Assembly: GCA_002753335.1 (NCBI GenBank)
Contig: PEAD01000017.1
Coordinates: 1-62,142 of the forward strand
Length of the DNA: 62,142 nt
Direction of reading: 5' to 3'
From: Nitrospirae bacterium MYbin3
Lineage (GTDB): Bacteria; Nitrospirota; Thermodesulfovibrionia; Thermodesulfovibrionales; Dissulfurispiraceae
A program made the position numbers. The number at the start of each line of letters is the position of its first letter. Within the stretch, counting starts at the first letter, position 1. Of this stretch, positions 11,501 through 14,500 are shown piece after piece.

Positions 11501-14500
11501 TTGTTATAAGACGCATAACAGAAGACCTAAATATTGGTGTCGATATTGTTGTCTGCCCCACCGTCAGGGAATATGACGGGCTTGCTATGAGCTCGAGGAA
11601 CGCGTATCTCAGCCCTGAGGAGAGAAAGTCTGCCGGAGCGATATACAGGGCCTTGCAGGCGGCGGCAGCGATTTTGAAATCCGGTTCGGGGACCGTTTCT
11701 GAATCGGTTTCTGCTATGAAGTCGGTTTTGAGTGCTGAGCCGCTTATTTCTGAGATTCAGTATTCCGGTATCTATGATCCGTTAACATTGGCTGAAGCTG
11801 TTGATGCAGGAAAAGAAAAACTGATTGCGGCTGCGGTGAAGATTGGACGTACGAGGTTGATAGACAACATTCTTGTCTGACGGTTTAGTAAAAAGCCCGT
11901 ATGCTGCGTTGCGCTTTTCCCCTTTTTACCGTACCGCTCCCCTCGATTGAGTTTCTAAAATCTTATGGCAGTTTGTACATCTTTTTCTTTTTACATGAGG
12001 AGATTTTGCGCCCCATGGTATCGGAGGTGCTTGTGCAATATTATTGGGAATCATTGCCTGCGGCTGCAACTCTGAAAGAGGTTCAGTAGCCTGAGGCTGT
12101 GCAATAGCTGTCTGTCCAAAGTTCCGGGTATCATACGGCCCGGGTGATACCTTGCCAGCAATGTTTGTGTAGGGGTGAGTGGAGTCAGAAAAGTTTTGCA
12201 TGGCCTCGCCCAGATGATGGCAAAAATTGCAGCTGTAGTCTCCGGCTGTGAACTGGGCAGCTCCAACAGGACATATGCGGTCAAGAGGCTTTGTCGGCCA
12301 TAGTCCTGCTACAAGTTGAGGGTATTGGGCATTACGGGCAACATTTCTTTCAACCGCATCTTTATCAATCTTGCCGGTGCGGTCTTTTTTTACCGAGAGC
12401 ACTCCATAAACGACAAGCATTGCGATAATAGCCATTAAAATATAGTTGAAAATTTTGTGAAGCATTTTAGCGTTTACACTCCATGGGATATTCTACCATG
12501 ATGTCAAGCAATTGAACTGAGGCCACTTATTTCCCGGTTTGTTGTTTTTTTTTCTTTGCCTTTTTGTCAGCATACATTCTCTTGTCAGCCTCTTTTAGTA
12601 CGGATTGGTAATCAGTCTTTTTATCGCAGGTTGCATGCCCGATGCTGAATGATAAAGAGTAGCTGACATTCTCAGAATTCTCTTTGTTCCATTTGTCGGT
12701 AGCCTTTAAAAGCCTCTCAACCATCTTTGCGGTCTTATCTTTGCCGGCATTTAGAATAACAAGGAATTCATCGCCGCCTAAACGGAATACAATGTCTGCC
12801 TTGCGAACAGTATTTTTGATTAGTTTTGCTGCCGTAATTATATACTGGTCGCCTATGAAATGCCCTAAGCTGTCGTTGACTTTTTTCATGTTGTCCAGGT
12901 CTATGACAATAAAAGAGAGCTGCTCTTCTTTACGCTCAGCGCTTGCAATCTCTCTTTCGATAATTTCATTGAAGAAATGTCTGTTATAAAGATCCGTTAA
13001 CTGGTCTTTCATCGCAAGTTCACGGAGTTTTATGGCTCTGTCCTGCAGATGGTAAATCAGAATGTCGATGTTCTTGAAAAGTTCGGTGGTTGGCTCCTTG
13101 TGATACATGGTAAATACATCACATTCGGAGCATGATGCATATTTTTTTGCGAACTCGCCCTGAACCTCTCCACGACACATAGTCCCGGCCTGAAGCCAGC
13201 AGCGATAATCATCGCTGTTATAGACAGGGCAGTCTTTTTTTGAGCATTTCTTGATCTCAAAACACCTGACTGTGTGCAGTTCATTGTGCAGGCTGCTCCA
13301 TTGTTTAACTTCCGAGGAAATCTCTATAGAGTGCTTGATAAATTTTTCTAGGTCGCTATTCATGCGGTGAAGAAAATCTTCACTCTCTATAGCCTCTTTT
13401 TTATAATCAGCTCCTTTCTTCACAATCCCCCCTATTTTTGGATATAGAAGATATTCTGTTTGCATGCAGCATTATTGTCAATTTTAAATTATATAACAGG
13501 TCTTGATTTCAGAAATTTTTCAAGCTTGCTGTTTTTAAATATGCCTCTATTTTCCTCGAACCCGGAAGTCAGCTCAGTATTTTCTAAAAAACATATTCCA
13601 GACAATGAAGTAGATTATCGGTGAAACAGAAACAAATGCATTCAAAAGAAATAACCTTCCTTTGATACCGCGAAATCTTTCCTTCAGACTTAATGCTAAA
13701 TTTAAAATGGACCATGCCAAGCCAAGTGTCATTACCAGATACATCTGTGGCGCATAGCCAAAAGGGCTCTCCGAGTATGTGTTGGCAAATACAATAACAA
13801 GTATTGGAACAAAGACTGCAACAACAAGACTTATTAGGGCAAAGATGTTCGTCATGGTGTAATTTTCTTCACCCGACCCACCGAACCGTCTGTCAGGCGA
13901 ACTTTTATACCGTGAGGATGCACAGCTGAGTTTGTCAGGATGTCTTTTACTATCCCTTCCGTAAGTTTACCGGTTTGCTGGTCTTTTTTTAATACAATAG
14001 AGACAAGCAGTCCAGCTTTGATATCAATACGCCTAGTGCCTGTCATTAAGTCACTATCCTATACTCACCTTTTTCTGCTGTTCGAACATAGTGATGATTT
14101 CGGACACGGTGTTTGCATCCACAGCTTTTTTATCCGTTCTTATAAAGCCTGTTGACCTCGGAAACCTAAGCGCATAGCCGATGCCGTCTTTATCTCTTCC
14201 GGCCGTATGCATTGGAGAACGGGTAAGTTCATCTGCCGTTACTGTTATTACATATTGTGGCTCAACCCAAACATCGGCTTTCATATCAGAGTCCACATTC
14301 TTGTGTTTATGCTTCAAGGCTATTTTGTCGAGCAAAGACTTTAATTCAATGAGCTCTTCGTCGCTGAAGCCCGAGCCTATTTTGCTGATTGTCTTGAAGG
14401 TTTCGCTTTTATTGTCATAGACCGCCCCTAAAATCCCGCCTATGCCGAACTTTGTCCTTGCTCCGCGTCCCACGAAATATCCTACAATGCAGACATCAAC

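Follow-up and report, generated by a model that had tools for sequence, protein, structure and literature searches.

Magnetochromes (MCRs) are defined by a hydrophobic residue, a PH pair, 5-9 residues, and a CxxCH motif (Arnoux et al., PMC3971196). In the account of MamP given there, the PDZ dimer and MCR1 form an iron crucible and MCR2 projects outwards; MamT is described as consisting solely of two MCR domains in tandem, and MCR tandems are proposed to have arisen from a lone MCR. The haems of MamP must hand electrons to putative acceptors, and the passages of PMC11648623 on this topic leave the functions of MamT and MamX open; mamT mutants form small crystals (PMC8788322). As the first-pass annotation of the locus had recorded, mamT is assigned to Pseudomonadota only in the distribution passages of PMC9840458. 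Magnetosome clusters of Nitrospirota are portrayed in PMC8353452 as varying very little and carrying a single mamP, and it likewise holds that the cluster lists in the text of PMC9376291 and PMC8353452 give one mamP and no gene of the kind reported here. The openly readable text of this literature describes neither a tri-haem nor a PDZ-less MamP in Nitrospirota; figures, subscription papers, and the supplement of PMC9840458 fall outside that scope and may label a second mamP. FmpB (MamP*, or "mamP-like") of Desulfovibrio magneticus RS-1 is a non-canonical MCR protein outside Pseudomonadota that was once called mamT (PMC4287615) and has the layout MCR1-MCR2-PDZ-NitroFeMoCo (PMC3971196), and Mad1 of Desulfobacterota is a magnetosome protein with three CxxCH motifs and no known homology (PMC4287615).

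The locus analyzed here lies in a window of 62,142 nucleotides (the whole stretch of DNA studied, contig PEAD01000017.1, our C57) from Nitrospirae bacterium MYbin3. It encodes a 179-aa protein that pairs one MCR with a different CxxCH module, which we call haem-0 (about 40 residues around the first CxxCH, with the pattern CP-x12-CxxCH-x13-H). The features are as follows.

11926..12465, minus strand: whole gene (179-aa ORF), with anchor, haem-0 module, linker, and one MCR2-type magnetochrome.
12394..12453, minus strand: predicted N-terminal membrane anchor, residues about 5-24, from hydropathy, an AF2 helix, and homology to the MamP N terminus.
12310..12363, minus strand: MamP-type juxtamembrane segment, residues 35-52, from alignment with the genome's own MamP.
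12160..12279, minus strand: haem-0 module, residues 63-102, not an MCR, with invariant C65, P66, C79, C82, H83, T96, H97, Y99, and I102 and a predicted helix at 80-96.
12034..12159, minus strand: Pro/Gln-rich linker, residues 103-144, from alignments; its end is the point of the MamP PDZ and MCR1 deletion, and its constraint is the weakest.
11953..12033, minus strand: single magnetochrome of MamP MCR2 type, residues 145-171, from Pfam MCR and the MCR2 profile, with the PH ligand motif and CxxCH intact and the conserved Gly replaced.
11881..11955, minus strand: possible decayed second MCR2 copy (uncertain), across and behind the stop codon, from scoring against shuffles and random windows.
12490..12498, minus strand: putative promoter element resembling an extended -10, lying 25-33 nt before the ATG, by a pattern chosen after seeing the sequences.
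12479-12482, minus strand: putative GGAG upstream of the ATG.

The hydrophobic anchor proposed in the first-pass annotation is borne out by a best 19-residue Kyte-Doolittle mean of 2.41 from residue 5, and the AF2 model (mean pLDDT 44.7) is confident nowhere but in helix 2-29. Pfam finds no PDZ domain, again as annotated. The two CxxCH motifs (residues 79-83 and 163-167) had both been read as magnetochromes, but the Pfam MCR match that places the protein in the MCR family (30.7 bits against a cutoff of 30.4, and 33.3 in the genome-wide search) spans residues 147-170 only and so takes in just the second; the first lacks an upstream PH and scores no more than 3.8 bits on MCR1, MCR2, and MamE MCR profiles. 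What had been missed is that this first motif belongs to haem-0, the non-MCR module that defines the family. The second CxxCH has the order of elements expected of a magnetochrome (PF18509: hydrophobic residue, PH, 5-9 residues, CxxCH) above the Pfam cutoff, and it departs from a stricter published MCR pattern at the conserved Gly. A genome-wide MCR search gave three strong matches, namely, this protein and the two MCRs of mamP. The view that Nitrospirota have MamP only also overlooks MamE, which carries a single MCR in MYbin3 and in M. bavaricum (PMC3971196).

Almost certainly, the gene derives from mamP. Residues 2-126 align with the MamP of the same genome at 32% identity (tblastn, E 3.8e-8), and an N-terminal profile of 109 positions, which matches canonical MamP over positions 1-65 only, recovers canonical MamP N termini in 11 of the 22 genomes of family f6. 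On profiles built from 19 canonical MamP proteins, the MCR of the 179-aa protein scores 51.1 bits as MCR2 versus 15.0 as MCR1, and the same holds for each of the 18 MCR units found in PDZ-less forms (48.8-64.1 versus 14.2-29.1 bits). In the PDB, the family profile matches MamP alone, within the MCR region. The protein thus shares with MamP (NF040965; PDB 4JJ0/4JJ3) the N-terminal anchor, the juxtamembrane segment, linker motifs, and MCR2, from which it differs in its added haem-0, its location outside the cluster, and the absence of PDZ and MCR1 from both the alignment with MamP and the profile searches. A MamP-type N terminus and MCR2, together with only 14 bits on the MamT model (cutoff 200), therefore indicate that the gene descends from mamP and has lost PDZ and MCR1 by deletion. 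The MamP order of PDZ followed by MCR1 and MCR2, missing here, is present in four full-length haem-0 relatives, and intermediates that hold haem-0, PDZ, and both MCRs do exist (P0008, P0013, P0014, and P0015). On the MamP model, such tri-haem relatives reach 206-221 bits, comparable with the 215-222 of canonical MamP from Nitrospirota. Their PDZ-MCR regions group with Dissulfurispiraceae MamP in one clade (support 95/99), which places the mamP duplication within this lineage.

The statement that only three other proteins resemble this one is true of a single-sequence search, but profile searches yield a family of 18, some of them near-identical. Genomes named in the first-pass annotation were matched to our handles by identity and position only. 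Its closest orthologues stand, at 55% identity in G420 (starting 2.6 kb before mamK) and 49-50% in G426 (two copies), although they have three CxxCH motifs rather than two. Those reported at 30% in G412 and G419 do not stand as PDZ-less orthologues; both continue into a PDZ domain of MamP type, and they share 40-43% identity with MamP versus 29-30% with the 179-aa protein. The relatives form a series from tri-haem PDZ paralogues through PDZ-less forms with two MCR2 copies to PDZ-less forms with a single MCR2. Five of the 18 join haem-0 to PDZ (four full-length with both MCRs and one cut by a contig end), six are PDZ-less with two MCR2 copies (haem-0 being partly doubled in one), five, including the 179-aa gene, are PDZ-less with one intact MCR2, and two are fragments. 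In a haem-0 tree, the 179-aa gene falls in a clade of 11 PDZ-less members (100/99), and two other PDZ-less members, both from short contigs (614 and 1538 bp), group with the PDZ forms. We do not claim repeated PDZ loss: the tree implies three changes (bootstrap range 3-3), but the AU test does not reject a single PDZ-less clade (p-AU 0.171), and the odd members lie on those short contigs.

The full-length tri-haem paralogue in L045 (326 aa, three CxxCH) lies 408 bp behind mamK, after a small gene, with canonical mamP 1.7 kb further on. These two mamP paralogues (2618-3601 and 5266-6180) have 549 bp of PDZ-MCR DNA in common with one mismatch, which likely reflects gene conversion. Near-identical PDZ-MCR DNA of this sort accounts for the broken contigs in G419.

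Membership of MamT or MamX, as the first-pass annotation had proposed for the former, was rejected. On NF040992 (MamT) the 14 bits come from a protein with one MCR and one non-MCR CxxCH module instead of an MCR tandem; the MamX match (NF040996) is as weak as first described, at 15.6 bits against a cutoff of 400. Likeness to MamT lies in a small, membrane-anchored protein with MCR but no PDZ, and the differences are that the MCRs are MamP MCR2 copies by profile, that there is an extra non-MCR haem motif, and that MamT-specific similarity is missing. MamX likewise has an anchor and an MCR, over which the weak match runs, and its C-terminal domain finds no match here. FmpB is comparable as a non-canonical MCR protein outside Pseudomonadota, from which the 179-aa protein differs in lacking PDZ and the NifB/X domain; Mad1, compared by description only, is comparable as a non-canonical haem protein of magnetosomes. 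The two-MCR relatives do share the MamT layout of an anchor and tandem MCR, and they do so by convergence; they score 19-21.6 bits on the MamT model, higher on the MamP model, and canonical MamP itself reaches 24.7-31.2 on the former.

This bears on the original suggestion of a second iron-oxidizing magnetochrome. On this reading, the protein would be a stand-alone ferroxidase and working counterpart of MamT, with MCR2 itself oxidizing Fe(II) and the two-MCR relatives serving as convergent MamT analogues. Six of the 18 relatives have the MamT layout, the two-MCR forms are in or beside the cluster where their context is known (G420 and G426), and MamT is a named candidate for redundancy with MamP (PMC11648623). 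Nevertheless, the PDZ and MCR1 that build the MamP crucible (PMC3971196) are exactly the parts deleted, the 179-aa copy has a single MCR and a MamT score below that of canonical MamP, and the passages of PMC11648623 on MamT leave its own activity open, so that we hold a ferroxidase unlikely. Since the only MamP haem kept is that of the projecting MCR2, and a second haem would sit near the anchor, an electron relay suits the architecture better.

Haem-0 runs from Cys65-Pro66 through CxxCH (79-83) and a predicted helix to Thr96-His97-x-Tyr99, residues invariant in 17 aligned sequences. Across all 18 sequences, the Cys65-Cys79 gap is 13 residues (14 in one), the His83-His97 gap is 13, and every candidate ligand is kept. 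None of 17 haem-0 units has [P/T/H]H at 5-9 residues before CxxCH, and none exceeds 7.8 bits on the profiles of MCR1, MCR2, and the MamE MCR; judged by sequence, the module is distinct from magnetochrome. Pfam, NCBIfam, and the PDB hold no counterpart (NCBIfam gave just a weak zinc-ribbon CxxC match to the N-terminal part), the genome offers no donor (next match at E 0.49 among 12,737 ORFs), and a search of 1.84 billion representative sequences returned 12 matches, three with haem-0, all of them MamP-derived. Querying the ESM Atlas with residues 55-110 gave generic CxxCH proteins (best score 0.89), a lead only. AF2 models haem-0 poorly (pLDDT about 30-50) in both the 179-aa protein and a tri-haem relative (mean pLDDT 62.3), a fold search returned just MamP and PDZ proteases, and homodimer prediction for residues 28-108 with haem scored 0.01, a value that speaks neither for nor against a dimer.

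From its CxxCH, we infer that haem-0 would bind haem c; on sequence grounds alone, either Cys65 or His97 may serve as its sixth ligand. In P0009, the unit from before CP through CxxCH is duplicated without the later His, which fits Cys as the ligand of a self-contained unit. The invariant Cys-Pro makes the His/Cys-ligated c haems of TsdA and SoxA a possible parallel in ligand type; these differ in showing no sequence match (only the SoxX model, at E 0.17 in one relative), and haem-0 is only about 40 residues long.

The gene indeed lies outside the magnetosome cluster, which with mamP is on contig C20. It sits between panC and a GGDEF gene, in a region where the same-genus genome G401 is syntenic over most of window positions 2680-20348 at 76-82% nucleotide identity, making a misbinned contig unlikely. 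In G401, a ccdA/DsbD-type gene (L063 10397-11038) occupies the equivalent slot, so the contig appears native to the genus and the 179-aa gene a local gain or replacement. The closest ccdA of MYbin3 itself, on C1, is only 31% identical to that slot gene. Relocation from the cluster and uptake from a relative both fit. The orthologue in G420 follows a MinD-like gene at the cluster edge, and in L044 a tri-haem form is next to a response regulator that shares 85% identity with the one at that cluster edge in MYbin3, where no family gene remains. A second single-MCR copy occupies another ectopic site, behind ruvAB (L042), and is intact.

The copy in MYbin3 might be a decaying leftover of a functional family, moved from the cluster, shortened, and under relaxed selection. 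It does show signs of drift: its end branch in the haem-0 tree is long (0.49 against a median of 0.14), one HH is changed to HP, a linker motif is altered, and it is the sole protein of 16 to depart from the published MCR pattern, through its lost glycine. The candidate second MCR behind the stop codon is suggestive only: 65 of 2000 shuffled sequences and 40 of 2000 windows taken at random score at least as high, and nhmmer gives no match there. However, the frame is open with all ligands present, and pairwise dN/dS against five homologues (Nei-Gojobori, rough values because dS is near saturation) is 0.26-0.35 for the whole gene; by region, averaged over both branches, it is 0.11-0.26 in haem-0 and 0.14-0.27 in MCR2 versus 0.47-0.83 in the linker. 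As controls, mamP gave 0.10, mamK 0.03, and two accessory genes 0.24 and 0.38. Both predicted haem regions are, by this measure, under purifying selection. The caveat that the gene may be a degenerate MamP duplicate is hence correct as to MamP origin and only partly so as to degeneration. The extended -10-like element found upstream of this gene recurs upstream of three of nine family genes in all, itself included (about 0.011 expected per region, with the pattern post hoc), and does not appear in the output of a sigma-70 scan that requires a -35. With this element, and with the L042 copy also intact at its ectopic site, we consider a decaying leftover rather unlikely.

By profile search, haem-0 occurs in five of 68 Dissulfurispiraceae genomes. 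Five of the 68 carry mamP, and G420 (81% complete, its cluster cut by a contig end) is a sixth with magnetosome genes. These six include every haem-0 genome, and haem-0 occurs in none of the other 62, where mamP was the sole magnetosome marker checked except in G401 (mamP and mamB); as the five are related to one another, the counts cannot be taken as independent tests. G401 (99% complete), though syntenic around the slot, has neither mamP nor an orthologue of mamB or of the 179-aa gene. Haem-0 is also missing from G178 (99% complete, with mamP) and from all 22 genomes of f6, a magnetotactic sister family in which MCR occurs in 20 of the 22. Two MCR-bearing f9 genomes did not match the family profile, and a plasmid collection gave no match to MamP. 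This gene type is thus dispensable for magnetosome formation in relatives (G178 and the f6 genomes). The named records nDJH15bin8 (L046) and MAG_10313_ntr_31 (L049) carry family genes, and both are in the Dissulfurispiraceae group of PMC9376291. These data support a family confined to one Nitrospirota family and linked to magnetosomes, in keeping with the first-pass description of a magnetosome-linked, PDZ-less magnetochrome protein.

That link weighs against a role away from the magnetosome, whether as a co-opted periplasmic cytochrome or as a sensor of gases or redox state, in which haem-0 would signal redox state by switching between Cys65 and His97. Cys-to-His ligand switching occurs in haem sensors, and the haems of MamP have potentials of about -80 mV. 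Two candidate sixth ligands are invariant in all 18 sequences, the duplicated unit of P0009 fits a Cys ligand, and His/Cys c haems are of low potential, about -185 mV in TsdA (PMC6879331); a potential below that of the MamP haems would favor feeding electrons in or sensing. On the other hand, the protein has no cytoplasmic output domain, the neighboring GGDEF gene is also present in non-magnetotactic G401, and the family never occurs without magnetosome genes among the 68 genomes, which together make a sensor quite unlikely.

The surroundings of the gene and of the clusters yielded further observations. The GGDEF protein (window 12527-13465, minus strand) has a Cys-rich N-terminal region without a confident Pfam match and is 82% conserved in G401. 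Also shared with G401 is a pair of genes for a CdhD-domain membrane protein (window 4604-5713, minus strand) and a ferredoxin with two [4Fe-4S] clusters (4305-4619, minus strand) that resembles hgcA/hgcB; by its motif, it may be labeled a putative mercury-methylation pair. Genes for a MinD-like ATPase, a response regulator, and a PAS histidine kinase lie between a mad28-like gene and mamK in MYbin3 (L001 2290-5312, C20), and the MinD-like gene is kept at the same place in G420, G426, and G412. Upstream of the magnetosome cluster, a block of vWA, PP2C, protein kinase, and FGE-sulfatase genes is found in MYbin3 (L002 4666-8364, C20), G420, G426, and G412 (also L034, L036, and L037); we take it to resemble the TerY-P triad. 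It is missing from the published cluster gene lists, as given in the text of the cited papers. In G426, two incomplete magnetosome clusters follow one another (C16 5000-41900, L034-L035), and both contain a haem-0 gene; the second mamP is split into two ORFs, and contamination of the genome is 6%. A cation-efflux and Nitro_FeMo-Co fusion gene directly before the first of these haem-0 genes (L034 9595-10719) recalls the NifB/X domain of FmpB. Names of cluster genes in MYbin3 are presumptive and follow the published order, with profile scans covering mamP and mamE. A previously named man or mad gene was rejected as an identity for the 179-aa gene: the MYbin3 cluster has its own genes in published order, and the cluster lists, as printed in the text of those papers, name no such haem protein.

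We favor, at about an even chance, a membrane-anchored di-haem c cytochrome that would relay electrons with the magnetochromes of MamP and MamE and help set the Fe(II)/Fe(III) balance in magnetite growth. A mamP gene would have been duplicated within the Dissulfurispiraceae lineage, one copy gaining haem-0 in the linker that joins the anchor to PDZ; deletion of PDZ and MCR1 would have followed, with MCR2 duplicated in some lines, and single-MCR2 copies would have ended outside the cluster in MYbin3 and L042. The helix would serve as anchor with the haems facing the periplasm or magnetosome lumen, MCR2 would be the exposed redox contact, and haem-0, nearer the membrane and ligated by His83 and either Cys65 or His97, may pass electrons on or buffer them. 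A bolder extension, possible but on the doubtful side, would make haem-0 a second miniature cytochrome domain specific to magnetosomes (His and a Cys-Pro thiolate, perhaps switching to His97) that one Nitrospirota family grafted onto a MamP duplicate and then freed as a relay. It would then be the electron partner still missing for MamP in these cells, or its redox gauge, and the series would show a lone MCR2 giving rise afresh to a MamT-like tandem.

To conclude, this is a real MamP-derived family of magnetosome accessory proteins with a predicted haem module missing from the published lists cited above, and the magnetosome toolkit gains a predicted haem motif unlike magnetochrome. Assemblies break on the near-identical PDZ-MCR DNA that tri-haem paralogues share with mamP, which can also conceal such paralogues. 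With both MCRs of the PDZ-less two-MCR forms being MCR2 copies, the series provides a concrete case for the origin of tandems from a lone MCR. The 179-aa protein offers a small, soluble-domain candidate partner of MamP that is amenable to expression and assay, at a step, MamP re-oxidation, whose route is left open in the passages of PMC11648623 on MamP.
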